DNA of 64,000 nt from Holophagales bacterium (lineage in GTDB: Bacteria > Acidobacteriota > Thermoanaerobaculia > Multivoradales > Multivoraceae). The stretch is taken from positions 14,065 through 78,064 of the forward strand of contig VXSP01000015.1 of NCBI GenBank assembly GCA_009837885.1, read 5' to 3'. Under the pieces are notes generated by a model. That model searched no databases. It saw only the letters and a program-made list of their open reading frames with translations, and was not told the DNA's origin. A program made the translations under genes and the position numbers. This document shows, piece by piece, positions 3,165-46,415 of this stretch (positions are counted from its first letter, which is position 1; the number at the start of each line of letters is the position of its first letter).

Positions 3165-3232
3165 GGGCGGCTCGCCTTGGTTGTTTGGGGCTCTGGCGGC
3201 TGGGCTCACTGTATCGTGAGTGTTGACTCAGT

Positions 3233-5314: not shown

Positions 5315-5489
5315 ATCTGAACCGCTACTTCAGCTCATCATGATGGATTGCGGTAGCAGTTCAGTTCATCAGGTTGGATCTGCGATGCTGGGCTACGACG
5401 TGAACCTTGAACGGTGTATCATGTTCAACGGATCAAGAGCTAGCTCGCCGGCACTCCGTCGCCGGCACCACAACGGAGGGAAAACCGCC
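5315..5489. promoter_or_regulatory. Divergent intergenic promoter region between the ARH-like gene (-) and the TonB receptor gene (+), with candidate operator palindromes
   Basis: A locally AT-richer 175-bp spacer. It contains the perfect palindrome CATCATGATG inside an imperfect inverted repeat (GAACCGCTAC...GTAGCAGTTC). The RBS GGAGGG lies 10 nt before the ATG at 5490. Confidence 0.3.
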
Positions 5490-17195: not shown

Positions 17196-17249
17196 TAGCG
17201 AGTCGTCCTAGGTTCCCCATGCACGTTGTCGCCGTGGTAGACGTGGGTC

Positions 17250-19730: not shown

Positions 19731-19992
19731 GTAGGCGAGGGCACGCCCGAAGATGCGCAGGACTTCCCGGAACGGGATGTCGGTCTGTGTGTCGAGCGCG
19801 CTCGCCGAACGATCGAGCGCCTTCTCTCCCTCTCGGAGCCTTGCCCGCCAGGACTGCGGGCGGCGCGGGAGTCGCGGGGCGGCTGCCGGCTGCGTCAGAT
19901 CGACTCCGAGAGCAGTGCGCCGAGCAACAGGAGTGCGGTTTGCTGTCTCATGGTGTGCGTCCCGTGAGTCATTAGAGTTGCACGATTCCAGG

Positions 19993-21630
19993 ATGTCTAT
20001 TGTTCCGCTGCAGTCGCCGTCGAGATTGAGCGTATCCGCGCCGTCGCTTCTGCTTGCGGGGCTACTGACCTTCGTCGTTGCCTGCGCGCCCGAGAGTCGC
20101 GCCGATCGGCTGGAGTCCGCCGGCCTGAAGGCGCGCCCGCCCGCGGTCGGCGGTCCGCGCTACGGCGGCCACTTGCGGGTGGGCCACTCTCTGGAGCCCA
20201 CGTCGCTCGACGCGATTCTGGGCCGGTCGGGCGCCGACGCCTACTTCTGGCGGCAGATCTTCGATCAACTGGTCGACGCGGACCCGCAGCTCAATCCGCG
20301 GCCGGAGACCTCGCTCGCGACGTCCTGGGAGATCGCGACGGATCCCGACTCGATCACCTTCCACCTGCGGGAGGGCGTCGTCTTCCATGACGGCACTCCC
20401 TTCAATGCCCATGCGGTCAAGGCCAACATCGAGCGGATTCTGGACCCCGCGACCGTCGCGACGCCGCGCGCATCGCTGGCGGTGATCGAGGGGGTCGAGG
20501 TGATCGACGAGTACACGGTGCGCTTCGACCTGGCCGGGCCTTGGGGCGCGGGTTTCGGCATGCTGGCCGACCGTGGCGGTGTGATGAGCTCGCCGGCCGC
20601 GATCGAGGCGCTCGGCGCCGACTACGGCTGGAGCCCATCGGGAACCGGGCCGTTCCGGGTGAAGGAAGTGATCACCGGCACCCTCGTGCATTTCGTGCGG
20701 AACGAGGACTACTGGGGCCGCGACGAGCACGGCAACCAGCTTCCGTATCTCGACGAGGTCACGGTCCGGGTGATCCGCGACGAGACCGTCCGCGCCGCGG
20801 CCCTGCGCACGGGCGAGATCGACGTCACCTACCTGCCCTACAAGGACGTTTCGACCTTCGAGCGGGACGAGCGGGTCCGGATCGAGACGATGCCGGGAGG
20901 AGGCATTGCGCTGACGCTGGTCTTCAATGTCGACAAGCCGCCGCTCGACGACGTGAACGTCCGGCTGGCGATCGCCCACGCGGTCGACCCGACCGTGATC
21001 AACAGGGCGATCTTCTTCGACCGCGCGATCGAGGCCGACGCGGGCATGTGGCCGGTGGGTTCCTGGGTCCACGAGCCGGACGGCGAACGGCCCACCTACG
21101 ACGTCGACAAGGCCCGGCAGTACCTCGCGAAGGCGGGGCGGGAGAGCGGCCTGGAGTTCACGGCGGTCACCCACCACAACCCGCTGCTCGTTTCGAGCGC
21201 CGAGGTGGTGAGGGCGATGCTGAAGAAGATCGGCATCCACATGGACATCGACGTGCTGTCCAGCGGCCCGGCGACCGAGAGGTTCAACCACGGCCAGGAA
21301 TACCCGATGTTCATCACCTCCTGGAGCCGCTATCCCGAGCCGGACTGGATGGCGTCGCTGGCCTACAAGAGCGACGGGTACTACAACCCGGGCAACGTGC
21401 TGCGGCCGGACGTCGACGAGCTGGTGGAGCTGGGCGCCTCGCTCTACGACAACGAGGCCCGCAAGCAGGTCTACATCGAGCTCAACCGGACCGTGCTAGG
21501 CGAGGCCTGGTTCACGCCGCTGCTCTACGGCGTGACGTTCGCGGCGGCACCCGGGAGGGTGCGCAACCTCGACCAGTTGATGGGCTGGGACGGCAAGATG
21601 AACTTCGCGACGATCTGGCTGGAGGAGTAG
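19993..21630 (+). CDS. ABC transporter substrate-binding lipoprotein, family 5 (peptide/nickel/oligosaccharide, DppA/OppA-like)
   Basis: The start is at M81 of the tracked ORF (MSIVPLQSPSRLSVSAPSLLLAGLLTFVVAC, lipoprotein signal). It shows typical SBP_bac_5 length and composition and is followed by two permease genes. Confidence 0.8.
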   Translation: MSIVPLQSPSRLSVSAPSLLLAGLLTFVVACAPESRADRLESAGLKARPPAVGGPRYGGHLRVGHSLEPTSLDAILGRSGADAYFWRQIFDQLVDADPQLNPRPETSLATSWEIATDPDSITFHLREGVVFHDGTPFNAHAVKANIERILDPATVATPRASLAVIEGVEVIDEYTVRFDLAGPWGAGFGMLADRGGVMSSPAAIEALGADYGWSPSGTGPFRVKEVITGTLVHFVRNEDYWGRDEHGNQLPYLDEVTVRVIRDETVRAAALRTGEIDVTYLPYKDVSTFERDERVRIETMPGGGIALTLVFNVDKPPLDDVNVRLAIAHAVDPTVINRAIFFDRAIEADAGMWPVGSWVHEPDGERPTYDVDKARQYLAKAGRESGLEFTAVTHHNPLLVSSAEVVRAMLKKIGIHMDIDVLSSGPATERFNHGQEYPMFITSWSRYPEPDWMASLAYKSDGYYNPGNVLRPDVDELVELGASLYDNEARKQVYIELNRTVLGEAWFTPLLYGVTFAAAPGRVRNLDQLMGWDGKMNFATIWLEE

Positions 21631-26458: not shown

Positions 26459-27832
26459 CTAGCTGTCACGCCCCGAAGGCAGCACCCGGCCCTCTGGGTA
26501 GTCGGCGCCGGTGACGCTCTTGTCGACGGACCGGTTCCAGGCATCCAGCTCCGCCCGCATGCGGGCGGCGAGTTCGGGCTGCTGCTCGATCAGGTTGTCC
26601 TCTTCCCCGGGATCGTCGATCACGTTGTAGAGCTCGAAGGGATCGGTCGGGTCGGAGAAGTAGTTCCGCACCAGTTTGACCTGGTTGTCCAGCCAGGCGA
26701 GACCGCCGCTGGCGCGGAAGCCGATGGGCTGCTCCCGGCGGGCGGGCTCGGACTCGAACACGCGGACAATGGAGATGCCGTCGTGGACCTCGTTGATCGA
26801 CGACGGGTCGAGCCCGGCGACCTCGATCAGGGTCGGGAAGATGTCCATCGTGCTGGCGGGGAAACTCGTGATCCTCGGGGCGATGCCGCCTGGCCATTCG
26901 ATGATCGTCGGCACGCGCAGGCCGCCCTCGTAGAAGTCCTTCTTGAAGCCGCGCAGGTGGCCGGTGGTGTCGGGGCGGACGCCGGGATGCTCGGGGCCGT
27001 AGGAGATGTCGGGCAGGCCGCCGTTGTCGCTGGTGAACCAGACCAGGGTGTTGTCGGCGATTCCGAGTTCACGCAGGCCCTCGCGGAGAGCGCCGATGGA
27101 GCGGTCCATCGCGACGATCTCGGCGTGGTGCGTCCTGGAGGCATCGTCCAGCGCCGTGAAGGGCTGCTCGTCTTCCGGCAGGGCGGCGAACGGCCGGTGC
27201 GGTGAGGCGTACCAGATCACCGCGAACACCGGCTTCCCGCTCTCCCGCTGCTCCGAGATGTAGCGCAGCGCTTCGGCGACCAGGATCTCCGACGAATCGC
27301 CCTCGAACTGCTTCGGCACTCCGTTCTGACTGAAGACGGGGTCCAGGTTGAACTGGTTCGTGTGGCTCAGCCAGTAGCCGAAGCCGAGTTCGCCGGGATT
27401 GTGGGGGTCGTCCGCGGGCATCGGATTGTCGCCGCTTGGATGGACCTGGTTCAGGTGCCACTTGCCGAAGTGGGCCGTGGCGTATCCAGCCTGCCGGAAT
27501 GCCGTGGCGAGCGACTTCTCCTGTTTGTTGATCGAGTCGCCGACGCGGAAGGCCCCTGTGCGATCGTTAGTGCGCCCGGTCAACACCGTCGCCCGGGTCG
27601 GGGTGCAGCTCGGCGCGCCGGCGTAGAACCGGTCCATGCGGAGGCCAGCGCCGGCCATCGCGTCGAGGTGGGGCGTCTGGAGCAGTGGATGGCCGTAGTA
27701 GCCGGTCTGCGCCCAGCCCATGTCGTCGGCCATGAGGAGGACGACGTTGGGCGGATCGTTCTCGGCTGCGGGCTGGCAGGCGAGAACCGCGAAGAGCGGC
27801 AGGGGGAGGAATCGGGGAAGAGACTTCAGCAT
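26459..27832 (-). CDS. Sulfatase (formylglycine-dependent arylsulfatase family), secreted
   Basis: 457 aa. Signal peptide. The sulfatase signature is SCTPTRATVLTGR (C-x-P-x-R), with NVVLLMADDMGW as the metal-binding start and GKWHL. Confidence 0.9.
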   Translation of the reverse strand: MLKSLPRFLPLPLFAVLACQPAAENDPPNVVLLMADDMGWAQTGYYGHPLLQTPHLDAMAGAGLRMDRFYAGAPSCTPTRATVLTGRTNDRTGAFRVGDSINKQEKSLATAFRQAGYATAHFGKWHLNQVHPSGDNPMPADDPHNPGELGFGYWLSHTNQFNLDPVFSQNGVPKQFEGDSSEILVAEALRYISEQRESGKPVFAVIWYASPHRPFAALPEDEQPFTALDDASRTHHAEIVAMDRSIGALREGLRELGIADNTLVWFTSDNGGLPDISYGPEHPGVRPDTTGHLRGFKKDFYEGGLRVPTIIEWPGGIAPRITSFPASTMDIFPTLIEVAGLDPSSINEVHDGISIVRVFESEPARREQPIGFRASGGLAWLDNQVKLVRNYFSDPTDPFELYNVIDDPGEEDNLIEQQPELAARMRAELDAWNRSVDKSVTGADYPEGRVLPSGRDS

Positions 27833-29336: not shown

Positions 29337-30551
29337 ATGAAGCTCAGACAGAACGAGGCGCTCAAGGCGCGGGGCGAGCGGGTGCTCCCGGGCGGTATGT
29401 ACGGACACATGTCCACGTACCGCCTCCTGCCGCCCCGGTACCCGCAGTACTTCGAGCGCGCCGAGGGCTGCCGGCTATGGGACGCCGACGGCAACGAGTA
29501 CATCGACTTCATGTGCTCGTTCGGTCCGATGATCGCCGGCTACGGCAATCCGCGCATTCGGGCCGCCGCGGACGCGCAGCGCGACCGGCTCGACATCGCG
29601 AACGGTCCCCCGGCGCTCATCGTCGACCTGGCCGAGCGATTCGTGCGTCAGGTCAGCCACGCCGAGTGGGCCATCTTCGCGAAGAACGGCAACGACGCGA
29701 CGACCGTCTGCAACATGGTGGCTCGCGCGCGGGGCGAGAAGCGCAAGATCCTCGTGGCCGAGGGCGCGTACCACGGCGCGGCGCCGTGGGCCAACCGGAT
29801 GTCGAGGGGCACGCCCGCGGAGGATCATGTCCACTTCCCGACGTACCGCTACAACGACACAGGCAGCCTCGACGCGGCGGCCCAGGCGGCGACCGGCGAC
29901 CTCGCGGGCATCGTCGTCTCCGCCTTCAGGCACGACGCCGGCCACGACCAGGAGCTGCCCGATGTCGCCTTCGCCCGCCGCGTCCGCGAGATCTGCGACG
30001 CCGAGGGCGCGGCCCTCATCCTGGACGACGTGCGGGCCGGGCTGCGCCTGTCGCTCGACGCGAGCTGGTCCGAGTTCGGCGTCCAGCCGGATCTGTCGGC
30101 CTGGGGCAAGGCGATCGGCAACGGCGAACCCGTAGCCGCCATTCTCGGCAGCGAGGCGTACCGGGAGGCCGCGACGCGCGTCTTCGTCACGGGCTCGTTC
30201 TGGTACCAGGCCGCGCCCTTCGCCGCGGCGATCGAGACCCTCGACCTGCTGGCCGAAGTCGACGCGCCGGCCGTCGTGGAGCGGCTGGGGCAGCAGTTCC
30301 GGGACGGCCTGGAGGAGCAGGCGCGTCGCTACGGTCACCCGATCCGCCAGACCGGACCGCCGCAGATGCCGGCGGTCCTGTTCGAAGACGACGACAGGAG
30401 AGAGAAGGGGTTCGCCTTCTGCAGCGCGGCCCTCGACCACGGCGTCTACCTGCACCCCTGGCACAACATGTTCCTGTCGGTCGCCCACACGGAGGCCGAC
30501 ATCGAGCAGGCGCTCGCCGGGACGGAGAAGGCGTTCCAGGCGCTCGGCTGA
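29337..30551 (+). CDS. Class III aminotransferase (glutamate-1-semialdehyde 2,1-aminomutase-like)
   Basis: The start is at M138 of the tracked ORF, with an RBS AGGAGA. PLP-fold motifs include GNEYIDFMCSFGPMIAGYGNP, ILDDVRAG and SAWGKAIGNGEPVAAILG (the PLP-lysine region). Confidence 0.8.
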   Translation: MKLRQNEALKARGERVLPGGMYGHMSTYRLLPPRYPQYFERAEGCRLWDADGNEYIDFMCSFGPMIAGYGNPRIRAAADAQRDRLDIANGPPALIVDLAERFVRQVSHAEWAIFAKNGNDATTVCNMVARARGEKRKILVAEGAYHGAAPWANRMSRGTPAEDHVHFPTYRYNDTGSLDAAAQAATGDLAGIVVSAFRHDAGHDQELPDVAFARRVREICDAEGAALILDDVRAGLRLSLDASWSEFGVQPDLSAWGKAIGNGEPVAAILGSEAYREAATRVFVTGSFWYQAAPFAAAIETLDLLAEVDAPAVVERLGQQFRDGLEEQARRYGHPIRQTGPPQMPAVLFEDDDRREKGFAFCSAALDHGVYLHPWHNMFLSVAHTEADIEQALAGTEKAFQALG

Positions 30552-30566: not shown

Positions 30567-31970
30567 TCACGCCTGCCCGGTGGCGATGATGTAAAGGCGG
30601 TCCGAGATGTCGCGGACCGTCGCCTCCATCTCCGGGTAGAACTCGCCGCGGGTGGTCATCAGACCCTGGTGCTGAGCCTGCTCCTTGCCGGGCATGGTCT
30701 TTGCGGTGTCGATCATCCCGCACATGTGCCAGCCGACGAAGTCGGGACGGGCGGTGGCGTTCTCCATGAACTCCCGCGTCCAGAGCGCTCGCTCCGCCAT
30801 GTCGCGCGCGTGCTGCCCATGCGGATTGGGCATGGTCTCGGTGGGCAAGGTGTAGGCGGCGTCGCCGTTGAGGAAGGGTTGCCCCACAGCGTCCGTCAGC
30901 CGATCCATCGTCTCGCGCTGACCCTCCCAGCGGGCATAGTGCTGCGTGTTGACAAGGTCGGTGTAGCGGCTGGTCACTGCGGCGATGGAGTGGAGCCCGT
31001 CCGTGTCGCCGTTGATCTTGTCGCCGAGGAAGAGGTGGTTCGGGTCGGCGCGGCGGAGAGCGGCCCTGGCGACGGAGTAGTAGCGCTCGACGCAGAGCAG
31101 CAGGAACGCCGCGTTGTCGCTGCGCTCCGCCTCGTTCGCGGGGGCTTGATCGGGTCGCCAGTTTCTCGCCTTGAGGAGATCCGGCCACGCGGTGAAGCTG
31201 GTGCCGTATGTGGCGTTGAAACCGGACACGTCGCCGTAGCGCTCGCGCATGCAGTCGACGTAGGCCTGCTTGCCGGGCGCGTCGGCGGCGAAGTTGCGTA
31301 GCCGGCGGGGCCACGTCGTGCTGCCGTTCCATACCGCTTCGTTGTCGGTCAGGGGTGGACAGTCGGCCATGCAGTAGCCCAGCACCATGGGATCGTCGCG
31401 GTAGGGCGCGGCGACTTGCCGGGCCGTGCGCTCGCACTGCGCCTCGAACGCCGGGGCGAAGACGTCCGCGTAGGCATCGGGCTGGGGCTTGAGATAGTGG
31501 GACAACACAAGCGGCTCGTAGGGCGCGACGAAGGGAAACCGGGCCTGGCCCGGCGGGTGGGTGAGCATCGTGGCGTTCGTGTGAATGCCCAGGGTGTTCA
31601 GGCCCAGCCTCCGCAGGTCGGCCAGGGCGGCCTCGCGGAAGCCCCTGTTCCAGGCCCGGTCGTACACATCCTCCGCGCGGAATCGCCGCAGCCAGAGATC
31701 GCGGTTGTAGTCCTGCGCCCACCAGTTCGCGTGGTAGTGGTTGACGCCCCAACTGATGAACGCGTGGCCTTCGGGAGTGACCAGCCACCATCGTCGTCCG
31801 TCGTGCTCGGTGCGAAAGAAGCCGGTGGCGTCGAACTTCAGTCCGGTCCAGCCACCGAAGCGATCGCGACCGCCGGCTATTCGCGCGGCCCAGGTCGGCC
31901 CTCCAAGGTAGGCGCCGAACCCGATCAGAGCCGACTTGAGCAAGTCGCGTCGGGCAATGGAGAGAGGCAC
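30567..31970 (-). CDS. TAT-secreted hydrolase-like protein (probable glycoside hydrolase; family not identified)
   Basis: 467 aa from a GTG start 14 bp after the symporter stop, preceded by an AAGGA RBS. A twin-arginine signal is present (SIARRDLLKSALIGFGA). The composition is TIM-barrel-like (FISWGVNHYHANWW...). It is hidden inside a 1592-aa artefactual ORF in the track. Confidence 0.5.
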   Translation of the reverse strand: MPLSIARRDLLKSALIGFGAYLGGPTWAARIAGGRDRFGGWTGLKFDATGFFRTEHDGRRWWLVTPEGHAFISWGVNHYHANWWAQDYNRDLWLRRFRAEDVYDRAWNRGFREAALADLRRLGLNTLGIHTNATMLTHPPGQARFPFVAPYEPLVLSHYLKPQPDAYADVFAPAFEAQCERTARQVAAPYRDDPMVLGYCMADCPPLTDNEAVWNGSTTWPRRLRNFAADAPGKQAYVDCMRERYGDVSGFNATYGTSFTAWPDLLKARNWRPDQAPANEAERSDNAAFLLLCVERYYSVARAALRRADPNHLFLGDKINGDTDGLHSIAAVTSRYTDLVNTQHYARWEGQRETMDRLTDAVGQPFLNGDAAYTLPTETMPNPHGQHARDMAERALWTREFMENATARPDFVGWHMCGMIDTAKTMPGKEQAQHQGLMTTRGEFYPEMEATVRDISDRLYIIATGQA

Positions 31971-31984
31971 GGCGTCCTTTGGCC

Positions 31985-33625
31985 CTACCGGACGAGCACG
32001 TACATCACCACCAGCGCCACGGCCAGCAACCCCGCCAGCAGCCGCGGGTCGCGGACTCCCGTGATCTCCGACCGGGCCAGGAACGCGTACGGCTTGTCCC
32101 AGGTCAGGCCGTCGATCTGCTCGGGCTTCGGCGGCGGGGTCGCCAGGCTGACTCCCACGTAGATGAGACTCAGGATGCAGAAGTACCACCACGCTTGCAG
32201 CAGGAACGGGATCCCCAGGCCGTTCACCGGGTCGGAGACGTACTGGACGCCGCCGAGGAATCCGAAACCCATGTCGAACAGGAAGATGATGAAGCCGGCG
32301 ACGAAGCCGAAGAGCAGGGTGAACGTGCCGGCTTGACGTGTTCCGCGCCGCCAGAAGACGCCCCAGAGGAGCACCGTCGCGATGGGAGGGGCGATGAACT
32401 GCGCCGGCAGCTTGTTGATCGCCTCGAAGATGGAGCCGAACCGCTCGCCCTGGGTGGACCAGGCGATGGCGACGCTCATGACGACGACCGAACTGATGCG
32501 TCCGATGCGCACCTGCGACGTCTCGGACAGGTCGGGCCGGAAGTGCTTGGCGATGTCGACGGCGACCAGGGTTCCGGTGCTGTTCACCGCGGCCGCGATC
32601 GTGCTCATCAGCGCCGCGAGCAGCGCCGCCGCCATGATGCCGATGAGCCCGGTCGGCAGCAGCTCGGTGATCAGCGTCGGCAGGGCGTCCGTCGGCTCGG
32701 TGATGATGTCCTTGAACAGCACGTAGGCGAACACGCCCGGCAGGACCATGAAGAGCGGCGGCAGGAACTTGAGCAGGGAGGCGAAGAGCGCGCCGTGCTG
32801 CGCGTCGCGCAGGGTCCCCGCGCCCAGCACCCGCTGAACGATCGTCTGGTCGGTGCACCAGTACCAGATGCCGAGGATGGGGAAGCCCAGCAGGAAGCCG
32901 TACCAGATCGAGCCGGGATCGAAGCCCTCTTCCCCGGGAAGATGAATCATGCTGAGCTGGTTCGGCTTCGTCGCCTCGAGGAGATCGCCATAGGAGTCGA
33001 TCCCCACGCCAGGCAGCCTGGTCATCGCGATGATCGTGATCAGGATGGCGCCGCCGAGCAGGATGACGGTCTGGATCGTCTCGGTGACGACGACCGCCCG
33101 GAGGCCCCCGACCACGGTGTAGATCACCGTGATGATCGAGATCATCGCGATCGACGCAAAGGACGGGATGCCGAAGAACCGCTCGAACACGGCGGCGCCG
33201 GCGTAGAGGCTGATGCCGATGTGGATCAGCATCGCCGACATGATGAACATGAAGGAGAGCGTCGTCCGGGCGGTCGGGCTGTAGCGCCGCTCCATGAACT
33301 CGGGCAGCGTCGTGATCCGGCTCTTGAAGTAGATCGGCACGAAGACGAGGCTGAGCAGGATGATCGTGAAGGACGCCATCCACTCGTAGTTGCCGACGAC
33401 CATGCCGACGCCGAAGCCGCTCTCGGCGAGCCCGACCAGGTGAATCGTCGAGATGTTCGAGGCGAACAGCGCGGCCCCCACCACGGGCCACTTCAGGTTG
33501 CGGCTCGCCAGGAAGTACGACTCGCTGGTCTGCCGCTTGATCTTGCGCACCGACCACAGGCCGACGAACAGGATGCCCAGCAGGTAGACGACGATGATGA
33601 AGAGATCGACGAGCGCGATGGTCAT
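31985..33625 (-). CDS. Sodium:solute symporter family (SSF) transporter
   Basis: 546 aa, ~13 TM. SSF hallmarks include GRISSVVVMSVAIAW and the N-terminal YFLASRNLKWPVVGAALFASNIS. Confidence 0.9.
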   Translation of the reverse strand: MTIALVDLFIIVVYLLGILFVGLWSVRKIKRQTSESYFLASRNLKWPVVGAALFASNISTIHLVGLAESGFGVGMVVGNYEWMASFTIILLSLVFVPIYFKSRITTLPEFMERRYSPTARTTLSFMFIMSAMLIHIGISLYAGAAVFERFFGIPSFASIAMISIITVIYTVVGGLRAVVVTETIQTVILLGGAILITIIAMTRLPGVGIDSYGDLLEATKPNQLSMIHLPGEEGFDPGSIWYGFLLGFPILGIWYWCTDQTIVQRVLGAGTLRDAQHGALFASLLKFLPPLFMVLPGVFAYVLFKDIITEPTDALPTLITELLPTGLIGIMAAALLAALMSTIAAAVNSTGTLVAVDIAKHFRPDLSETSQVRIGRISSVVVMSVAIAWSTQGERFGSIFEAINKLPAQFIAPPIATVLLWGVFWRRGTRQAGTFTLLFGFVAGFIIFLFDMGFGFLGGVQYVSDPVNGLGIPFLLQAWWYFCILSLIYVGVSLATPPPKPEQIDGLTWDKPYAFLARSEITGVRDPRLLAGLLAVALVVMYVLVR

Positions 33626-33667
33626 GGGAACAGGTTAGGAGACTCGACGATCGCGGTAGAACGTCCG

Positions 33668-33719
33668 GAAGCCGGCGCTTCGCGCCGGATGCCGGCGGGG
33701 ACGCCGGCGCACCCAGTGT
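33668..33719 (+). repeat. REP-like double-hairpin repeat (full copy) abutting the DUF1501 stop codon
   Basis: GAAGCCGGCGCTTCGCGCCGGATGCCGGCGGGGACGCCGGCGCACCCAGTGTC. Its 3' end provides the complement of the TGA stop of the DUF1501 gene. Confidence 0.85.
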
Positions 33720-35146
33720 CAGACGATGATGTCGTCTACGACGATCCCCTCGACGTCGGTCAACCGGAAGTCGCGCCCCTGCGAGCGGTACGTCAACTGC
33801 TCGTGGTCGAGACCGAGCAGATGCAGGATCGTGGCGTGCAGGTCGTGGATGTGGACCTTGTCCTCGATCGCGTAGTAGCCGTAGTCGTCCGTCCGGCCGT
33901 GGCTGTGGCCGGGCTTCACGCCGCCGCCGGCCATGAACATCGTGTAGCCGTGGGGGTTGTGGTCGCGGCCGTTGCGGGCGCCGGCTTCGGCGCCGGGGGT
34001 CCGTCCGAACTCGCCGCCCCAGAGGACCAGGGTCTCGTCCAGCAGTCCCCGTGACTTCAGGTCCTTGATCAGGCCGGCCACCGGGCGGTCGACCTCGGCG
34101 CAACTCTGCGGCAGGCCGGTGATCAGGCCCGAGTGGTGGTCCCACTTCGTGTCCGGGCCGTGGGTCGCCTGCACGAAGCGCACGCCGGACTCCGAGAAGC
34201 GGCGGGCCAGCAGACAGCGGAGGCCGAAGTTGCGGGCCACCGGGTCGTCGAGTCCGTAGAGCCGCCTGGTCGCGTCGGACTCGCCCTCGATGCTCATCAG
34301 TTCGGGCGCCTCGGTCTGCATGCGGAAAGCGAGCTCGAACGACTCGATGCGGCCCTCGAGCGCCTGGTCGGGCCCGGTCTGCTCGAGCTGGCGGCGCTGC
34401 CAGCGCTGCAGCAGGTCGAGTTCGCTTCGCTGGACCTCCGGCGACACCGATTCGTTGTCGAGGAAGTCGATCGTCGCGTCCTCCGTCTTCATCCGGGTCG
34501 TGCCGATCGCCGTGCCGTTGTAGGCGGCGGGCAGGAAGGCGGACGAGTAGTTCTGGACGCCGCCGTGCTGGTACGAGGGGCAGATCGTGATGAAGCCGGG
34601 CAGGTTCTCGTTCTCGGTGCCCAATCCGTAGGCGATCCACGAGCCCATCGACGGTCGCACGAAGCGGTCGCTGCCCGTGTTCATCGCCAGGATGGCGCCG
34701 CCGTGGGCGGCGTTCGTGCCCCACATCGAGCGGATGAAGCAGAGATCGTCGACCACGGAGGCGATGTTGGGCAGAAGCTCGCTCACCCAGGCGCCCGACT
34801 GGCCGTGCTGCCTGAACTCCCAGGGGCTCTTGAACAGGTTGCCGGTCTCGTTGAACTGGACTCGCGGCTTGGCGAAGGGCAGCGGCTTGTTGTCGTCGCG
34901 AATGAGGAGCGGCTTGTACTCGAACAGGTCGTGCTGCGACGGCCCGCCGTGCATGTGCAGGAAGATGATCCGCTTGGCCTTCGGCGCGAAGTGCGGCGCC
35001 CTGGGCGCGAGCGGGTTCGTGGATGTCGCGGCCAGGAGGTCGCGCTGCAGCAGGGACGAGAGCGCCAGGCCGCCGAAGCCGCAGCCGCAGGTCTTCAGCA
35101 TCTGCCGGCGGGTCAGGGGTGGCGGCTGGTAGTGGGGGTAGCGCAT
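33719..35146 (-). CDS. DUF1501 family protein (sulfatase-like fold; partner of PSD1 proteins)
   Basis: 475 aa. A TAT-like signal is present (LTRRQMLKTCGCGFGGLALSSLL). The body is conserved DUF1501 (HMHGGPSQHDLFEYKP...WGGEFGRTP...DHNPHGYTMFMAGGG). It starts 23 bp after the PSD1 gene. Confidence 0.85.
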   Translation of the reverse strand: MRYPHYQPPPLTRRQMLKTCGCGFGGLALSSLLQRDLLAATSTNPLAPRAPHFAPKAKRIIFLHMHGGPSQHDLFEYKPLLIRDDNKPLPFAKPRVQFNETGNLFKSPWEFRQHGQSGAWVSELLPNIASVVDDLCFIRSMWGTNAAHGGAILAMNTGSDRFVRPSMGSWIAYGLGTENENLPGFITICPSYQHGGVQNYSSAFLPAAYNGTAIGTTRMKTEDATIDFLDNESVSPEVQRSELDLLQRWQRRQLEQTGPDQALEGRIESFELAFRMQTEAPELMSIEGESDATRRLYGLDDPVARNFGLRCLLARRFSESGVRFVQATHGPDTKWDHHSGLITGLPQSCAEVDRPVAGLIKDLKSRGLLDETLVLWGGEFGRTPGAEAGARNGRDHNPHGYTMFMAGGGVKPGHSHGRTDDYGYYAIEDKVHIHDLHATILHLLGLDHEQLTYRSQGRDFRLTDVEGIVVDDIIV

Positions 35147-35169
35147 CGTTCGTGAGCTGACGTTGGAAC

Positions 35170-38100
35170 CTAGTTGATGTAGATGAACTCGCTGGCCGCG
35201 AGGATGACGTGGGAGAGCCGGGTCCAGGCGTAGAGTTCGGCGTCCGCGGAGGCATGGTCGCCGCTTCGCGGCGCGTTCCCCTCGGAAGCCGGCGAGGACG
35301 CCGGCGCACCCAGTGTGCGGCCACCCAGTGTGCGGCCGCTTCCACGGGCGCACCCGGTGTCCGACGCGCAGCTCCGCATCTCGTCGAGGAAGGCGAGGCT
35401 GTCGGCGATCTCGATGTCGTCGGCCGGGCGCCCGTAGGCGCGGACGAAGGCGGTATCGATGCGATCCGCGGCGTCGGCGTCCTCGATCTCCAGAAGTTGC
35501 TTTGCGAAGCCGAGCGCCGCCTCCTGGACGAACGGGCTGTTCATCATCAGAAGCGCCTGCCGCGGCACGACCGTCTCGGATCGATCGCCGACCGAGTCGC
35601 TGGCGTCGCCGAAGTCGAAGCCGCCGAAGATCGGATAGACAGCGGTACGCACGATCGGCATGTAGATCGAACGCCGCGGCGCGTCGTAGATGTCGACCCG
35701 GTCGAGTGGGCCGTACTCGCCGAAGACGTATCCCCGGGCGTTGTACTCTTCCACCCGTCCACCGATCGTCAGGTCGAGCCGGCCGGCGAGCTGCAGCAGG
35801 GCGTCGCGAATCGGCTCGACCTCGAGGCGTCTCCGGTTGTTGCGCCAGAGGAGGCGGTTCTCCTCGTCGACGGCCGCGTTCGCCGCGTCGTAGTCGCTCG
35901 ACAACCGGTACGTGCTGGACAGCATGATGTCGCGGTGGAGCTTCTTGAGCGACCAGCCGCCCTCGACGAAGCGGCGTGTGAGCCAGTCGAGAAGCTCGGG
36001 ATGCGTGGGTTTGCTGCCGATCACGCCGAAGTTGCTCGGCGTGTCGACGATGCCGCGGCCGAAGTGCCAGTGCCAGACGCGGTTGACGATGACGCGCGCG
36101 GTGAGCGGGTGCTCGGGGTGGGTGATCCAGCGGGCGAGCTCGAGCCGTCCGCTCGTGTCGCCGGCGACTGGCGGCGGCGGCACCAGGTGGTCCGTGACCT
36201 TCAGGAAGCCGCGCGGCTCCGGTTCGTCGGCCAGGTTCAGGTGGCTGCCCCGGATGTGTACCGGCAGGTCGACGGCCGCGGTCTCGTCCACTGCCATGGC
36301 GTGGGGCGGCGCGGGGGGTGAGGCTTCCTCCAGGCGTTCGACTTCGGCGCGCAGCTCCGTGAGCTGCTCCAGGGCCTCCTGCGGGTAGAGCTTCTCCTCC
36401 TCTTCCTGGTCGAGGCAGAGGATGCAGAAGTAGCCGTCGTAGACCAGCCATCGCAGCTCCTCCTGCTCGCGCGGCAGCCTGAAGTCCGAGGGTGAGAGTT
36501 CGTCCTCGTCCTTGAGCCCGAGTCGCATGAGGTGCTCTTCCCAGGCGATCTCGATGGTCGCGAACAGGCTCGCGTACCGCCAGGCGACTTCCTCGAGCGT
36601 CTTCGGCGCCGGCCCGCGGACTAGGCTCCGGGTCAGAGGCGCCGTCAGCACCTTCTCCGAGGCGATGATCGCCCGCAGCTCCTCGGTCACCTGTTCGTAG
36701 CGATCAGGAGAGGCGGCGGCGTAGGCGTTCCAGATCACGAAGACGGTGCTCGGGCTCGGGGCGTCCCCTTCGACCGGCGGGCCCTCCCGGTACCGGTAGA
36801 AGGCCCTGACCCAGCGTTCAAGAACGGCCGGCTCCAGCCCCCTGTTCCCGGCGACGCGGGCGATGGCGAGCGAGCCCGCCGAAGGGGGCTTGGCTGCCCC
36901 AGCGTCCCCATGGGGAGACGAGCCCTCGGATGCGCGTGCTCGTACCGCCTCGTCGTTGCTCCAGCTCGGGTAGGCCTCCTCCGCGGCGAGCAGGTACTCG
37001 GCGAGGGCCGCGCGGCGGGGGCCACGCAGGACGTCGTTCTGCTCGCGGACCACCCCGTCGACCTTCTCCTGCGCCTCGGCGACCAGCCTCTGCGCCGCCT
37101 CGTACGCGGCGATCTCGTCTTCCGGGGCCAGTGGCCGCTCCAACCAGCGCATGCCGGCGGCGTCGCTCATCGTCTCGGTCGAGCGCAGGATGCCGGCCAT
37201 CGCGTAGTAGTCGGCGGTGGGGATCGGATCGAACTTGTGGTCGTGGCAGCGGGCGCAGCCGACCGGCAGGGCGAGAAAGGCGCGGCCCAGGGTGTTGACC
37301 TGCTCGTCGACGATGTCGATCAGCATCTTGTCGACGTCCTGCTCGGCGAGCACCTTGGGGCCCAGCATCAGAAAGCCGGTGGCGGTGATCTGCTCGAAGC
37401 GCTGCGCGTCGGTCTCCGCCGGCATCAGATCGCCGGCGATCTGCTCGCGGACGAAGCGGTTGAAGGGCTTGTCGCGGTTCAGGGAATCGACGACGTAGTC
37501 GCGGTAGCGGAAGGCGTTGGGGAACGCGATGTTCTCGTCCAGGCCGTTCGAGTCGGCGTAGCGGGCGACGTCGAGCCAGTGGCGGCCCCAGCGTTCGCCG
37601 TAGTGGGGCGATGCGAGCAGCCGATCGACGACCTTCGCGAAGGCATCCGGGCTCTCGTCGGCGAGGAAGTCCTCGATCTCCGCTTCCGACGGGGCCAGGC
37701 CGATCAGATCGAAGGTCGCGCGTCTCAGCAGCGTGCGCTTGTCGGCTGGCGCCACCGGCGCGAGGCCGCGTTCCTCGAGGCGCGAGAGGATGAAGCGATC
37801 GAGGTCACGGCTGACCCAGGCCTCGTTCTCGACTTCGGGCAGCGCGGGGTCTTCGACCCGCCGGAAGGCCCAGTGCTCGCGGCCCGGGCCGTAGTCGAAC
37901 GCCTCGGCGGCTCTCGTGGCGACCACCGTCTGCTCCCCGCCGGTACGCGGGTCGGGCGCGCCGCGGCGGATCCACTGCTCGAAGTCGGCGATGACGTGCG
38001 CCGCCAGCTTGCCGTCCGGCGGCATCTGGGTGAGGCCTTCGTAGTGGAGCGCCTCGATCATCAGGCTGTCCTCGGGCGACCCCGGGACGATCACGGCGCC

Positions 38101-38319
38101 GCTGTCGCCGCCGGCGCGCACGCCTTCCGCGTCGAGCAGGATCAGCCCGCCGCGGATCTTCGCGGGATCGCCGCCGTGACACTGGTAACAGCGCTCAGCC
38201 AGGACCGGCCGGATCTTCGACTCGAAGAACTCGAGGTCGGCGGGATCGATCTCCGACGCGCCGGCGACCGTTCCGACCGCCGCCAGCCAGGCTAGTAGGA
38301 AGGGCGCAGCGCGGATCAT
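35170..38319 (-). CDS. PSD1-type protein: Planctomycete cytochrome C (PSCyt1) plus DUF1549 and DUF1553 domains
   Basis: 1049 aa with a signal peptide. The haem site is CYQCHGG...GGLILLD...PGSPEDSLM (PSCyt1), and the DUF1553-type C-terminus ends ...AASEFIYIN. The C-terminal region contains an in-frame REP-derived insert (GRTLGGRTLGAPASSPASEG). Confidence 0.85.
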   Translation of the reverse strand: MIRAAPFLLAWLAAVGTVAGASEIDPADLEFFESKIRPVLAERCYQCHGGDPAKIRGGLILLDAEGVRAGGDSGAVIVPGSPEDSLMIEALHYEGLTQMPPDGKLAAHVIADFEQWIRRGAPDPRTGGEQTVVATRAAEAFDYGPGREHWAFRRVEDPALPEVENEAWVSRDLDRFILSRLEERGLAPVAPADKRTLLRRATFDLIGLAPSEAEIEDFLADESPDAFAKVVDRLLASPHYGERWGRHWLDVARYADSNGLDENIAFPNAFRYRDYVVDSLNRDKPFNRFVREQIAGDLMPAETDAQRFEQITATGFLMLGPKVLAEQDVDKMLIDIVDEQVNTLGRAFLALPVGCARCHDHKFDPIPTADYYAMAGILRSTETMSDAAGMRWLERPLAPEDEIAAYEAAQRLVAEAQEKVDGVVREQNDVLRGPRRAALAEYLLAAEEAYPSWSNDEAVRARASEGSSPHGDAGAAKPPSAGSLAIARVAGNRGLEPAVLERWVRAFYRYREGPPVEGDAPSPSTVFVIWNAYAAASPDRYEQVTEELRAIIASEKVLTAPLTRSLVRGPAPKTLEEVAWRYASLFATIEIAWEEHLMRLGLKDEDELSPSDFRLPREQEELRWLVYDGYFCILCLDQEEEEKLYPQEALEQLTELRAEVERLEEASPPAPPHAMAVDETAAVDLPVHIRGSHLNLADEPEPRGFLKVTDHLVPPPPVAGDTSGRLELARWITHPEHPLTARVIVNRVWHWHFGRGIVDTPSNFGVIGSKPTHPELLDWLTRRFVEGGWSLKKLHRDIMLSSTYRLSSDYDAANAAVDEENRLLWRNNRRRLEVEPIRDALLQLAGRLDLTIGGRVEEYNARGYVFGEYGPLDRVDIYDAPRRSIYMPIVRTAVYPIFGGFDFGDASDSVGDRSETVVPRQALLMMNSPFVQEAALGFAKQLLEIEDADAADRIDTAFVRAYGRPADDIEIADSLAFLDEMRSCASDTGCARGSGRTLGGRTLGAPASSPASEGNAPRSGDHASADAELYAWTRLSHVILAASEFIYIN
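35285..35340 (+). repeat. REP-like repeat with tandem duplication of its 3' arm, located in frame inside the PSD1 coding sequence
   Basis: GAAGCCGGCGAGGACGCCGGCGCACCCAGTGTGCGGCCACCCAGTGTGCGGCC. Translated on the minus strand within the PSD1 ORF it gives ...GRTLGGRTLGAPASSPAS... about 60 codons before the natural stop. Confidence 0.75.
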
Positions 38320-38370
38320 TGAGGACTCAGGATTGAACGGCGCAGTCTACCAAGCAGCCGGTCCCTGCTG

Positions 38371-38440
38371 GGTGCCGCTGCGGGATCTCGAGGCTCCACA
38401 CTGGGTGCGCCGGCGTCCCCGCCGGCTGCCGCCGGAGGCG
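38371..38440 (-). repeat. REP-like repeat (reverse orientation, with a partial second copy)
   Basis: CACACTGGGTGCGCCGGCGTCCCCGCCGGCTGCCGCCGG is the reverse complement of the core, and it is preceded by the degenerate half-copy CTGGGTGCCGCTG. It lies between the sulfatase stop (38488) and the PSD1 start (38319). Confidence 0.75.
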
Positions 38441-38487
38441 GCTTTGAAACGCGCCGGCCGTCAGGCCGGCTCCGCTTCGCGCCGCCC

Positions 38488-40311
38488 CTACTTTCTCCGC
38501 ACGTACACGTAGTAGGCGCTCGCGATGACTTCCCGCCCTTCTTCGAACCAGGTGTGCAGGGCCATGGGACCCTCGGGCAGTGTCACCGTGAAGGTGGCCT
38601 CCCTGTCGTCGCTGTCCACTCGCGTCGTCAGCCCCTCGAAGCCGTAGGGCCTCTTGTCGCCGATGTCGAGGTGATGGTGGTCGCTGATGAACAGGCGTGC
38701 CGAGGAAATCGGCAACGCCGTGCTGCCCTCGGGCGCCGATGCGAGCGGTACGTCGATTTCCCTGGGCCAGCGCCGCAGTGCGAACTCGTACTCGCCCGCT
38801 TCGGCCACGTCGAGCAGCCAGTACCCGGTCTTCCGGGTGCCGCGCCGAACCTGCGCCTGCTGATCGACGAAGACGTCGAGCCACTCGCAGCCGGTCAGCA
38901 TCATGGGGTTCTCGATGTCGTCGCCGATGACGATCCGCTGGGGCTCGTTGGCGGTCGCGGCCACTTCGTCCCACCACTCGTAGAGGTGGTCCCGCATCCT
39001 GGCGACCACTTCAGGGTGCCGGTCGATCACGTTCGTGGTCTGCAACGGATCGGATGCCAGGTCGTAGAGCTCGCGGTCTTCGAGCAGGCGCCAGTGCTTC
39101 CACAGGACCCCCGCGTGACTCCGGGTGAGGATCGACTGGGTGTAGGGCGAGGGGTAATTGAAGCCGGACGGCATCCGGCTGTAGTTGATGATCAGCATGC
39201 GGTCCTCGGGAACGCCGGCGTCGCCGCGCAGCACGGGCGCCAGACTCATGCCGTTGAAGTTCGCGGCTGCCGGCGTTTCGATGCCGGAGAGGTCCAGAAG
39301 CGTCGGCAGGACATCCTGAACCTGTGTCAGGCCCGTCACGTCCTGCGGGTCGGCCAGGTCGCCGTTCGGCCAACTGATGAAGAACGGCACGCGATGGCCG
39401 CCCTCCCACAACTCGGTCTTCATGCCGCGCATGCCGGCGTTGAAGTAGAGCGGGCCGTGGGTGCTGCCGTTGTCGGTCATGAAGATCACGATCGTGTTCT
39501 CCCGGAGCCCTTCCTCCTCGAGGAACTCGGCGAGCTTGCCCATGTTTGTGTCGATGTTGCGGACCATCCCCAGGTACCTGCTCAGCCTGGTCTTCAGCGC
39601 CGTGCTCATGTCGGCGAACTCGGGCCGGGCCAGCGCGGCCGCCAGCGCAGCTTCGTCCTCCTCCTTGGCGATCAGCGGACCGTGCGGCGTGTTCGGAGCG
39701 ATGTAGGTCAGGAAGGGCGTTCCGGACGCCACGGAACGCTTCATGAACTCGATTGCTTCGTCGAAGAAGACGTCGGTGCAGTACCCCTTGAACGCCTCCC
39801 GTTTGCCATTGCGAATGTAGGTGTCGTCGAAGTAGTCGTTGCCCCAGAAGTCGGGTACCGAGCCGATGTGGGAGGAGGGGAACCACACCGTTTCGTGGAA
39901 GCCGCGGTCCTCCGGCCGGAAGGGGTAGTTGTCGCCGAGGTGCCACTTGCCGAACACCCCGGTTCGGTAGCCGGCCTCCGCGAAGATGTCGGCCATCGTC
40001 GGGATCTCGGGCCGCAGCAGGGCGCGACCGCTGCTGACGTTGATCGCGCCATTCCGCGCGGCGTCCATGCCGGTCAGCAGTTGTCCGCGGGTTGGCGTGC
40101 ACATCGGCGCCACGTGAAAGTCGTCCAGGCGCACGCTCTCGCTTCGCAGGCGGTCGAGATGCGGTGTCTCGAGCACAGGGTTGCCGTGGGCGGACAGTTC
40201 GCCGTATCCCTGATCGTCCGTCATCACGAGGACGACGTTCGGCGGCTGGGCGAACGCGGCCGCGGTGAGCGCGAACAGCAGAACACCGGCAAGAGACGTT
40301 GCTAGCCTCAC
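38488..40311 (-). CDS. Sulfatase (N-acetylgalactosamine-6-sulfatase/arylsulfatase-like), secreted
   Basis: 607 aa with a signal peptide. The signature is PMCTPTRGQLLTGMDAARNG (C-x-P-x-R), with NVVLVMTDDQGYGEL. Confidence 0.9.
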   Translation of the reverse strand: MRLATSLAGVLLFALTAAAFAQPPNVVLVMTDDQGYGELSAHGNPVLETPHLDRLRSESVRLDDFHVAPMCTPTRGQLLTGMDAARNGAINVSSGRALLRPEIPTMADIFAEAGYRTGVFGKWHLGDNYPFRPEDRGFHETVWFPSSHIGSVPDFWGNDYFDDTYIRNGKREAFKGYCTDVFFDEAIEFMKRSVASGTPFLTYIAPNTPHGPLIAKEEDEAALAAALARPEFADMSTALKTRLSRYLGMVRNIDTNMGKLAEFLEEEGLRENTIVIFMTDNGSTHGPLYFNAGMRGMKTELWEGGHRVPFFISWPNGDLADPQDVTGLTQVQDVLPTLLDLSGIETPAAANFNGMSLAPVLRGDAGVPEDRMLIINYSRMPSGFNYPSPYTQSILTRSHAGVLWKHWRLLEDRELYDLASDPLQTTNVIDRHPEVVARMRDHLYEWWDEVAATANEPQRIVIGDDIENPMMLTGCEWLDVFVDQQAQVRRGTRKTGYWLLDVAEAGEYEFALRRWPREIDVPLASAPEGSTALPISSARLFISDHHHLDIGDKRPYGFEGLTTRVDSDDREATFTVTLPEGPMALHTWFEEGREVIASAYYVYVRRK

Positions 40312-44858: not shown

Positions 44859-46220
44859 TCAGCCGCTGGTTTCGGCAGCGGCCGCCTTGGCCGCTTCCCG
44901 CTGCTGGCGCCGGAACTCGCGAACCCGCTGCATCTGCTCCCTCAACTGCTCGGGCACGATGAAGGTGGGCATGTTCGTCTGCTGCGTCTTGTCGCTGAAC
45001 GTGTAGTGGATGAAGCCGACCATCATCTCGTCGGTCGTTGCCTCGCCCCAGGTCACGTTGGACGTCGGATCGGGGTTCGCCAGGTTGTCGGTTGAGTTGT
45101 CGAACTTCGCGTCGACGCGGATCGTCGTGCCGGCCGGGATCACTCTGGGCGCCGTCGGCGTGTAGGTGAGCTGCCAGTTGAAGTCGTAGTTCGGCACGTC
45201 GAGCAGGACTTCCTTGCGGCCGTCCGGGTACTCGGCCGTGAACGTCATCGACTTGCCCCGCAGGTGCATGTGGGGCGTGAAGTCGAAGAGCACCGCCTCG
45301 TGTTCGGTGGTGTACGACGACCAGGAGTGGTAGTCGCTCTCGCCCGCCGGGATGTTGAGCGTCGGATCGACCAGCCACAGCGTCTCCACCACGTTCTCGG
45401 GCTTCTCGTCGTGGAAGTAGAGGCCCATCGTCGTCTGGTCGGTGCCGCCGGTGCCCGGGCCCGGGGTCTTGTGGTAGTGCATCTGGAAGAACAGCGTGCT
45501 GTTCGGCGGCATGCGCATTCCGTGCCCTTCCGCGAACTGGAGCGGCGCGACGCCCGGACCCCAACCGCCGACGAAGGTGAGGTCCAGGGTTCCGGTCGTG
45601 CTCCGCACGCCCGCGATGGTGGCGTCGGGCGGCGCCAGGTAGGTCAACTGGTGATGTACCGCTTCGACGAATCCTGGGTGGATCTCGATCGCCCGGATCC
45701 AGCGCTCTTCGTCGACCGGGTTGTCCACCTGGAGCCACTCGTAGTGATCCTCGATGTCGTCTGAGACGTGGAACTCCGGCGCGGTGTAGATGACGTCCGG
45801 CTCACCCAGCTTCCAGTGGGAATCGAACGTGGGCGGCTCCGGCGCCTGCGAGAGGTCGCCGGCCGGTGCGCCTGCGGCGACCCAGTTGTTCAGCGTCTCG
45901 ATCTCGGCGTCGGTGAGGCTCGGGTCCTCCACGAACTCGCCGTGCTCCGGATTGGCGAACCACGGCGGCATGGTGCGGTCGCTCACCGCCCGGCGGATCG
46001 ACCTCGCCCAGGGGCGCGTCTCGTCGTAGGTCAGGAGCGACATCGGCGCGGTCTGTCCCGGCCGATGACAACTCGCGCAGTTCTCGTGGAGGATGGGCGC
46101 GATGTGATCCGCCCAGGTCACCTCGGCGGGATCGGCTGCGTTGTTGGCTGGCGGCGCCGCGACGGCGGCACCGGCGAGGAGCGCGAGACCGAGGACGAGG
46201 AAGGGAAGGCGGGACTTCAT
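44859..46220 (-). CDS. Secreted c-type cytochrome fused to a copper monooxygenase-like domain (paralog of 1584-3164)
   Basis: 453 aa from M59 of the tracked ORF, with an RBS AGGAGA. Signal peptide MKSRLPFLVLGLALLAGAAVA. CASCH haem motif, then ...MPPW; copper ligands HH (VHHQL), HMHLRGKSMT and NYDFNWQ. Confidence 0.65.
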   Translation of the reverse strand: MKSRLPFLVLGLALLAGAAVAAPPANNAADPAEVTWADHIAPILHENCASCHRPGQTAPMSLLTYDETRPWARSIRRAVSDRTMPPWFANPEHGEFVEDPSLTDAEIETLNNWVAAGAPAGDLSQAPEPPTFDSHWKLGEPDVIYTAPEFHVSDDIEDHYEWLQVDNPVDEERWIRAIEIHPGFVEAVHHQLTYLAPPDATIAGVRSTTGTLDLTFVGGWGPGVAPLQFAEGHGMRMPPNSTLFFQMHYHKTPGPGTGGTDQTTMGLYFHDEKPENVVETLWLVDPTLNIPAGESDYHSWSSYTTEHEAVLFDFTPHMHLRGKSMTFTAEYPDGRKEVLLDVPNYDFNWQLTYTPTAPRVIPAGTTIRVDAKFDNSTDNLANPDPTSNVTWGEATTDEMMVGFIHYTFSDKTQQTNMPTFIVPEQLREQMQRVREFRRQQREAAKAAAAETSG

Positions 46221-46280
46221 GGGGTTCTCCTTGGGCGGGTAGGACGCCTTGGTTGGGGCGAGTCTAGCGGCAGAGCGACC

Positions 46281-46400
46281 GGAGCCGGCGCTGCGCGCCG
46301 GATGCCGGCGGGAACCCGTGTGGCGCGGGCCCGCGCCACACGCGTCACAGTCCGTGCGCCCGTCATCGGGCGCACGGATGACACGCCGGCGCACCCAGTC
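46281..46400 (+). repeat. Composite REP-like element: a REP copy whose loop carries a ~70-bp insert with two further perfect palindromes
   Basis: GGAGCCGGCGCTGCGCGCCGGATGCCGGCGGG, then the insert AACCCGTGTGGCGCGGGCCCGCGCCACACGCGTCACAGTCCGTGCGCCCGTCATCGGGCGCACGGATGACA, then CGCCGGCGCACCCAGTCTG. The insert contains the palindromes GTGTGGCGCGGGCCCGCGCCACAC and TCCGTGCGCCC-GTCAT-CGGGCGCACGGA. Confidence 0.8.
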
Positions 46401-46415
46401 TGAGCGCGTGCCTCT

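Follow-up and report, generated by a model that had tools for sequence, protein, structure and literature searches.

The stretch of DNA considered here, 64,000 nucleotides of a Holophagales bacterium (contig VXSP01000015.1 of assembly GCA_009837885.1, positions 14,065 to 78,064; hereafter the window), raises the question of whether neighbouring genes can be read as a pathway. On its minus strand lie five genes in a row, encoding an S1 sulfatase, a di-haem protein with PSCyt1, PSCyt2 and PSD1 domains (PSD1 protein), a DUF1501 protein, a sodium:solute symporter (SSF) and a protein with a twin-arginine translocation (TAT) signal, and the first-pass annotation proposed that they form a sulfated-glycan utilisation locus whose arrangement hints at what PSD1 and DUF1501 do. 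PSD1–DUF1501 ranks with the most abundant functionally uncharacterised modules in Planctomycetota and Verrucomicrobiota, and a firm contextual clue would be valuable, but the locus in the window gives none. The juxtaposition of the genes is recent and evolutionarily shallow, and the neighbourhood adds no real evidence on PSD1–DUF1501 function. The reading that we consider probable is that at least three independent envelope-directed units of a Thermoanaerobaculia-like acidobacterium, interspersed with repetitive extragenic palindromic (REP)-like elements, make up a lineage-specific mosaic in which the sulfatases, the TAT-signal protein and the symporter work on sulfated glycans and the PSD1–DUF1501 pair is autonomous.

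At 67% G+C long spurious open reading frames (ORFs) are common in the window, and G+C content at third codon positions (GC3) was used to pick the real frames; values of 0.84–0.95 back those of the five-gene string. Pfam recognises four of the five: sulfatase A (38488–40311, 607 aa; PF00884, 1e-53, plus SGSH_C), the PSD1 protein (35170–38319, 1049 aa; PF07635, 4e-14, PF07583, 9e-80, and PF07587, 7e-87), the DUF1501 protein (33719–35146, 475 aa; 2.5e-143) and the symporter, of the YidK/SGLT-like branch (31985–33625, 546 aa; PF00474, 2.5e-67). The fifth (30567–31970, 467 aa) was identified by sequence and fold searches as a (beta/alpha)8 protein resembling glycoside hydrolase family 50 (GH50), and is termed the GH50-like protein below. 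The genes, strands and coordinates first described thus hold for all five. From sulfatase A to the GH50-like gene the intergenic gaps are 168, 23, 93 and 14 bp, with DUF1501 starting 23 bp downstream of PSD1 and the GH50-like gene 14 bp downstream of the symporter gene. Scanning for promoters and terminators gave no site within the string's intergenic gaps, a scan that is uninformative at 67% GC.

The first line of evidence is the depth to which this arrangement is conserved. The DUF1501 protein is 97–99% identical to products of genes in three Thermoanaerobaculia metagenome-assembled genome (MAG) records and 86–90% identical to those in Vicinamibacterales-labelled MAGs, all from Acidobacteriota. 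The full order (sulfatase A, PSD1, DUF1501, SSF, GH50-like, aminotransferase, DUF2911, sulfatase B) is found only in loci L008 and L009, where DUF1501 identity is 99% and 98%, respectively. In L004 an opposite-strand gene for a 1233-aa protein (3keto-disac_hyd/DUF7133/HEAT/cytochrome c) lies between DUF1501 and SSF and a 134-aa ORF precedes the GH50-like gene; SSF and the GH50-like gene are separated by four extra genes in L006 and by a 1.7-kb gap in L089; and L010 has neither the GH50-like gene nor the aminotransferase. It is these insertions and losses between units, together with the absence of a REP spacer in L009, where sulfatase A and PSD1 are separated by only about 30 bp, that lead us to regard the region as a mosaic.

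The PSD1–DUF1501 pair, by contrast with its surroundings, is retained in all orthologues at 86–99% identity, and seven orthologous loci at 86–90% retain nothing else of the string; the neighbours in one locus (L012) are a PSCyt3/PSD2-5 plus DUF1552 pair, a metallo-beta-lactamase and a pyrroloquinoline quinone (PQQ) dehydrogenase. A wider set of 69 DUF1501 loci at 58–65% identity, from many phyla, tells the same story: a PSD1-type gene ends within 500 nt upstream of DUF1501 in 50 of the 62 loci that could be evaluated for pairing, the 995 kb of flanking sequence holds three sulfatase genes (0.03 per 10 kb), no sulfatase is adjacent in any of 125 flanks, and SSF and GH50-like genes are absent. 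The earlier suggestion that embedding between a sulfatase and a symporter speaks for a role of the pair in glycan processing is therefore not supported, as the arrangement exists only at 97–99% identity, is broken even there and is missing from the 86–90% and 58–65% relatives.

The REP-like elements fit the same picture. They share the core GCCGGCGGGGACGCCGGCGCACCCAGTGT, of which the window has at least ten copies, and copies were located in both gaps where the first-pass annotation had reported them: at 38396–38442 within the 168-bp spacer between sulfatase A and PSD1 (38320–38487, minus strand), and filling the 93-bp spacer between DUF1501 and SSF (33626–33718, minus strand), where the copy begins at the DUF1501 stop codon. 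They are GC-rich hairpins that have no U-tract and whose folding is no more stable than that of shuffled sequences (z about -1.4); for both of these reasons they were not treated as terminators. A further element was revealed by repeat search and orthologue comparison within the 3' end of the PSD1 coding region (35260–35318, minus strand), where it lies in frame and adds about 36 aa (…GRTLGGRTLGAPASSPAS…) ahead of the conserved C-terminal motif. This insertion is absent in L009 and in orthologues at 64–67% identity, shorter in L004 and longer, at about 50 aa, in L010, L089 and L090; varying in this way among strains, it is a tolerated coding insertion, and we regard the REP elements as mobile passengers. 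In OY762911.1, the relative at 99% (L008, 6159–9995), the 3' end of the PSD1 orthologue does not stay in one reading frame; either the gene is frameshifted or a pseudogene, or the REP-containing stretch is misassembled.

Under the mosaic reading, the first unit would be a Sec-exported, Cys-type S1 sulfatase, the second the PSD1–DUF1501 pair, comprising a Sec-exported di-haem protein and a TAT-exported member of the alkaline-phosphatase superfamily, and the third a YidK-like Na+ symporter followed by the TAT-exported GH50-related TIM-barrel protein. The second of these is a module of a known kind, described in Planctomycetes, Verrucomicrobia and Lentisphaerae and noted earlier in Acidobacteria (PMC3542564; PMC5615132). 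The window copy has the same two-gene architecture: a PSCyt1, PSCyt2 and PSD1 protein, which has CxxCH motifs for c-type haem at residues 44 and 355 and a signal peptide of the Sec type, and, after a gap of 23 bp on the same strand, a DUF1501 protein with a twin-arginine signal (TRRQMLK, of which R13 and R14 are invariant). Nothing essential sets it apart from the known module; the window copy does carry the strain-variable in-frame REP insertion, and its orthogroup has no sulfatase linkage outside the immediate clade. A literature search on DUF1501, DUF1553, PSCyt and the Pfam accessions returned no functional characterisation.

Sequence searches of the PDB returned no relative of the PSD1 protein, and for DUF1501 only LtaS at an E-value of 0.82, yet the DUF1501 sequence is extraordinarily conserved, with more than 60% identity across phyla. 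Its model has an alkaline-phosphatase-like alpha/beta core. The position of the nucleophile reads S/T144-N145-x-x-H148 and the invariant residues include D336-x-H338, D395-H396 and H434/H437, an order that is reminiscent of the bimetal sites of nucleotide pyrophosphatase/phosphodiesterases (NPPs). From motif order and model together, DUF1501 looks like an NPP/PafA-type member of the alkaline-phosphatase superfamily with Ser/Thr at the nucleophile position and His and Asp as metal ligands, and a lead worth following is that it would be a metallo-esterase of this type and not a formylglycine sulfatase. It differs from NPP/ENPP proteins and PafA in sharing only 12–14% identity with them, in having H-G-G-P-S instead of D at the first metal ligand position, and in invariably having a haem protein as partner, and it has no known activity. 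The idea that DUF1501 is a cryptic sulfatase was rejected, as the formylglycine motif CxPxR is missing and NPPs ranked above sulfatases. The pair most likely forms a periplasmic haem-protein/esterase module that is complete in itself and stands here by happenstance. Elsewhere in the window, two further secreted proteins have weak matches to cytochrome c (cbb3-type), encoded at 44859–46415 and 1584–3227 on the minus strand; a copper monooxygenase C-terminal domain is also present in one of them, which adjoins a luciferase-like monooxygenase. The true start of the 44859–46415 ORF is probably downstream, because REP copies lie in its annotated 5' end.

The two sulfatases are S1 formylglycine-dependent enzymes in their PF00884 domain, their C-T-P-T-R motif and their export signal. 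Sulfatase A has a Sec-type signal peptide and a Cys-type motif beginning at C71, and its C-terminal 150 aa or so form an extension that has no known domain and no match among solved structures in a PDB search; the best PDB relatives of the protein are the GalNAc-6-sulfatase 7stt (2e-46) and the S1_19 carrageenan sulfatases (1e-43 to 1e-38). Sulfatase B (26459–27832, minus strand, 457 aa; PF00884, 1.6e-53) has a lipoprotein-type signal (…AVLAC) and its motif begins at C76. The orthogroup of sulfatase A, of about 600 aa, is tightly conserved, with 68–76% identity across Verrucomicrobiota and Planctomycetota. Six orthologue contexts were read: two consist of Rhomboid, sulfatase and formylglycine-generating enzyme (FGE) genes, and three are multi-sulfatase clusters, two of which hold a 1255-aa DUF6807/DUF7133/HEAT/cytochrome c protein, with a DUF1501 gene added in one of these (L170); in L171, PSD1 and DUF1501 genes lie upstream of the sulfatase A orthologue. 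The Rhomboid arrangement, seen on metagenome contigs (L168 and L172, 6000–10900) as a conserved series of Rhomboid, sulfatase (70–72% identical to A), FGE-sulfatase and epimerase genes, pairs the sulfatase with its own maturation enzyme; the scanned genes of the window include no FGE gene. Sulfatase clusters are repeatedly accompanied by proteins of about 1250 aa that combine DUF7133, HEAT and cytochrome c domains with 3keto-disac_hyd or DUF6807 (L004, 3973–7674; L170, 3234–7001; L173, 1–2322). The one in L004, a 90% relative of the window, is that found between DUF1501 and SSF, and these giants are a second class of haem protein of the Planctomycetes–Verrucomicrobia–Chlamydiae (PVC) type that is associated with sulfatases.

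The symporter scores 304 bits against the YidK equivalog model (NCBIfam PRK10484, cut-off 401) and 298 bits against the superfamily model TIGR00813 (cut-off 184). The co-location of an S1 sulfatase, a glycosidase-like enzyme and a sugar-type transporter, with proteins directed to the periplasm, is shared with the yidJ–yidK pair (sulfatase and SSF) of the E. coli type and with the polysaccharide utilisation loci for sulfated glycans of Bacteroidota. The string differs in having no SusC/SusD pair, regulator or conserved operon, and in that its symporter falls below the YidK cut-off and is parted from the sulfatase by the unrelated PSD1–DUF1501 genes. The class-III (GSA-aminomutase-like) aminotransferase reported nearby is, like the second sulfatase, real (29337–30551, plus strand; PF00202, 2.6e-40). 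It is convergent with the GH50-like gene, a point that the first-pass annotation did not mention, and in the close clade it is present or absent together with that gene, both being missing in L010. A link from this enzyme to amino sugars was rejected, given its convergent orientation, its restriction to the close clade and NCBIfam matches that are all below cut-off.

The protein encoded at 30567–31970 had been called TAT-secreted and hydrolase-like. Its twin-arginine motif is ARRDLLK; Pfam returned only a sub-threshold GH42 match (E 0.004) and NCBIfam none. A phmmer search of the PDB, however, matched it to the GH50 beta-agarases Aga50D (3e-23), PfGH50B and AgWH50C and also to BpGH50, the Aga50D match spanning a conserved N-terminal FGGW…ATGFFRTE…PEG block. 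An AlphaFold2 model was built from a 30-sequence alignment (predicted local distance difference test (pLDDT) 90.3), and a Foldseek search with it placed GH50 proteins in all of the top 17 positions (E about 1e-27, TM 0.75), with GH42 next at 1e-10. The protein thus has the (beta/alpha)8 fold of a carbohydrate-active enzyme (CAZyme), related to GH50. Compared with the known structures (Aga50D 4BQ2, PfGH50B 6XJ9, AgWH50C 5Z6P, BpGH50 5T3B), it has in common the fold, the N-terminal beta-hairpin block, the Trp on beta8 and the Tyr after beta6, but shows only 18–20% identity and has no N-terminal domain resembling a carbohydrate-binding module (CBM).

The active site is where the two part company. 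The catalytic residues of Aga50D are E534 and E695 (PMC11079163), and in an alignment anchored by a conserved Gly and Pro these correspond to C204 and D370 of the window protein. In 97 family members, a set that includes distant tandem paralogues, position 204 is Cys in 80, Val in seven, Ile in four, Leu in three and Gly in two, and never Glu. The acid/base Glu that ends beta4 in an N-E motif in GH50 is therefore missing, and the Asn before it is replaced by D203, while at the end of beta7 the nucleophile Glu, which canonical representatives show within G/T-E-F, is replaced by D370; both aspartates occur in all 97. H78, H312, Q343 and C417 are likewise invariant and H130 and H415 nearly so, and in the model all of these residues fall close to, or at, the C-terminal end of a barrel strand. 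The label 'hydrolase' is thus unproven, as both canonical catalytic glutamates are absent.

A profile of the family, searched against 1.84 billion representatives, collected 4,612 clusters (at 50% identity) with E <= 1e-3, of which 2,891 reach E <= 1e-10, the latter count including canonical GH50. When the best 150 cluster representatives were aligned, the two classes separated cleanly. The class of the window protein shows N-H on beta1, x-D-x-P on beta4, D-K, Q on beta6, G/A-D on beta7 and W-H-x-C on beta8, whereas canonical GH50 shows D-N-E, C/S-R, N, G/T-E-F and H-W-F. Apart from the exchanges at the catalytic positions, the window class thus has Lys for Arg on beta5, Gln for Asn on beta6 and WHxC for HWF on beta8, and gains the invariant N-H on beta1 and a His on beta2. 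No Pfam or NCBIfam model covers this class, whose members are named 'hypothetical protein' in every source, and the TAT signal is conserved across it. The GH50-like protein belongs, then, to a large uncharacterised sister family of GH50, whose members may be mislabelled as beta-agarases by CAZyme annotation based on hidden Markov models.

These replacements give rise to an alternative, namely that the GH50-like protein is a metal- or cofactor-dependent enzyme of some other chemistry, or a binding protein, and no glycoside hydrolase, in which case the glycan reading would fail even for the symporter and GH50-like pair. The loss of the acid/base Glu, the change of the nucleophile Glu to Asp and the remodelled, His/Asp/Cys-rich site, with its new conserved residues (H78, H130, H312, Q343, H415 and C417), point this way, as do the family-wide TAT signal, the want of a Pfam or NCBIfam model and the mixed neighbours of the closer homologues (PQQ dehydrogenases, glyoxalases and GFO/IDH/MocA oxidoreductases). 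We nevertheless think it unlikely, as carboxylates remain at the ends of both catalytic strands (D203 on beta4, D370 on beta7), W414 on beta8 and Y345 after beta6 follow the clan GH-A pattern, the tandem paralogues and the strong association with sulfatases recall CAZyme clusters, and GH50 proper is already polyspecific (PMC11079163; bioRxiv 10.64898/2026.05.19.726164).

That association was followed through family loci from metagenomes, with the clade of the window excluded. Their 554 kb of flanking sequence holds 34 sulfatase genes (0.61 per 10 kb); an S1 sulfatase is present at 18 of 54 loci and is immediately adjacent in 9 of 92 flanks, on the same strand in seven. In de novo clustering of flanking ORFs the sulfatase led all other neighbours by a wide margin (23 of 80 distant loci), followed by DUF1501, PSD1 and a TAT-signal GFO/IDH/MocA oxidoreductase at five each. 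These frequencies are to be read with the caveat that sulfatase-rich marine PVC genomes raise the chance expectation of sulfatase neighbours, and homologues at 59–79% identity occur in unrelated contexts. The oxidoreductase stands beside GH50-like genes in five independent metagenome loci (L099, L128, L133, L134 at 4479–5831, and L140). Tandem arrays of distant GH50-like paralogues, 19–52% identical and all with x-D-x-P and G/A-D, often with a sulfatase next, were seen in L097, L107, L112, L114, L132, L141, L146, L149, L163 and L164.

It is accordingly plausible that the sulfatase, the symporter and the GH50-like protein act in sulfated-glycan metabolism, and the proposal of a sulfated-glycan locus survives in part: the fold is CAZyme-type and the S1 sulfatase is the commonest neighbour of the family, but the string is not conserved as a unit. 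In such a scheme, sulfatases A and B and the GH50-related enzyme would probably trim sulfated oligosaccharides in the periplasm, the former stripping off sulfate esters and the latter cutting a glycosidic bond by means of D203 and of D370, which takes the place of the nucleophile; uptake of the product would fall to the symporter. The locus is otherwise of known kinds, and the widespread, sulfatase-linked GH50-related family with its re-tooled active site is the only lead with some novelty. We put forward, with considerable reserve, that this sister family, with Asp/Asp replacing the Glu/Glu of clan GH-A, added invariant His, Gln and Cys and TAT export, could be a new class of enzyme dedicated to sulfated glycans and acting alongside the S1 sulfatases of Planctomycetota, Verrucomicrobiota, Lentisphaerota and marine Acidobacteriota.

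Several observations weigh against the mosaic of independent units. The shared strand and the lack of a terminator-like site make read-through co-transcription possible. PSD1 and DUF1501 recur near sulfatases, with DUF1501 within 7 kb of two of the six sulfatase A orthologues (L170 and L171) and PSD1/DUF1501 genes beside GH50-like and sulfatase genes in L135, L139, L143 and L144, so that a loose association of PVC-type haem proteins with sulfatase clusters, as published earlier (PMC5615132), is possible; such an association is not specific to the DUF1501 orthogroup of the window and could be produced by gene abundance. The 20-fold contrast in sulfatase density between GH50-like and DUF1501 loci is only indicative, as the former were drawn from metagenomes and the DUF1501 controls from genomes. 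The DUF1501 model is of moderate confidence only (pLDDT 67.8), and glycosidase activity is only predicted for a GH50-like protein that has no canonical acid/base Glu.

A rival reading, which takes up the first-pass annotation, would make of the five genes one co-regulated locus for sulfated or amino sugars, in which PSD1–DUF1501 performs a redox-assisted step between desulfation and uptake. The strand, the short gaps, the want of terminator-like sites and the order kept in L008 and L009 agree with this, as do the PSD1/DUF1501 genes beside sulfatase clusters in L135, L139, L170 and L171 and the earlier report that PSCyt genes neighbour sulfatases (PMC5615132). It is improbable all the same. Only relatives with at least 97% identity have the arrangement, which insertions and losses disrupt even within that clade, with no SusC/D pair or regulator in the string; neither the orthologues at 86–90% nor the 69 loci at 58–65% have the symporter, the GH50-like gene or an adjacent sulfatase; organisms rich in both families would show such co-occurrence by chance (5 of 54 GH50-like loci); and DUF1501, with no formylglycine motif, is nearest to phosphodiesterases. 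The mosaic of independent units is thus the reading that we retain.

Away from the string, the window contains a 2-kb inverted duplication, at 79% identity, of ATP-binding cassette (ABC) transporter genes encoding a fused permease and ATPase (12062–14245, plus strand, and 17778–20159, minus strand). It flanks a gene for a GH32 protein of the fructan hydrolase type (15399–17207, minus strand) and a WD40-like array of 126-nt tandem repeats (14269–15108).

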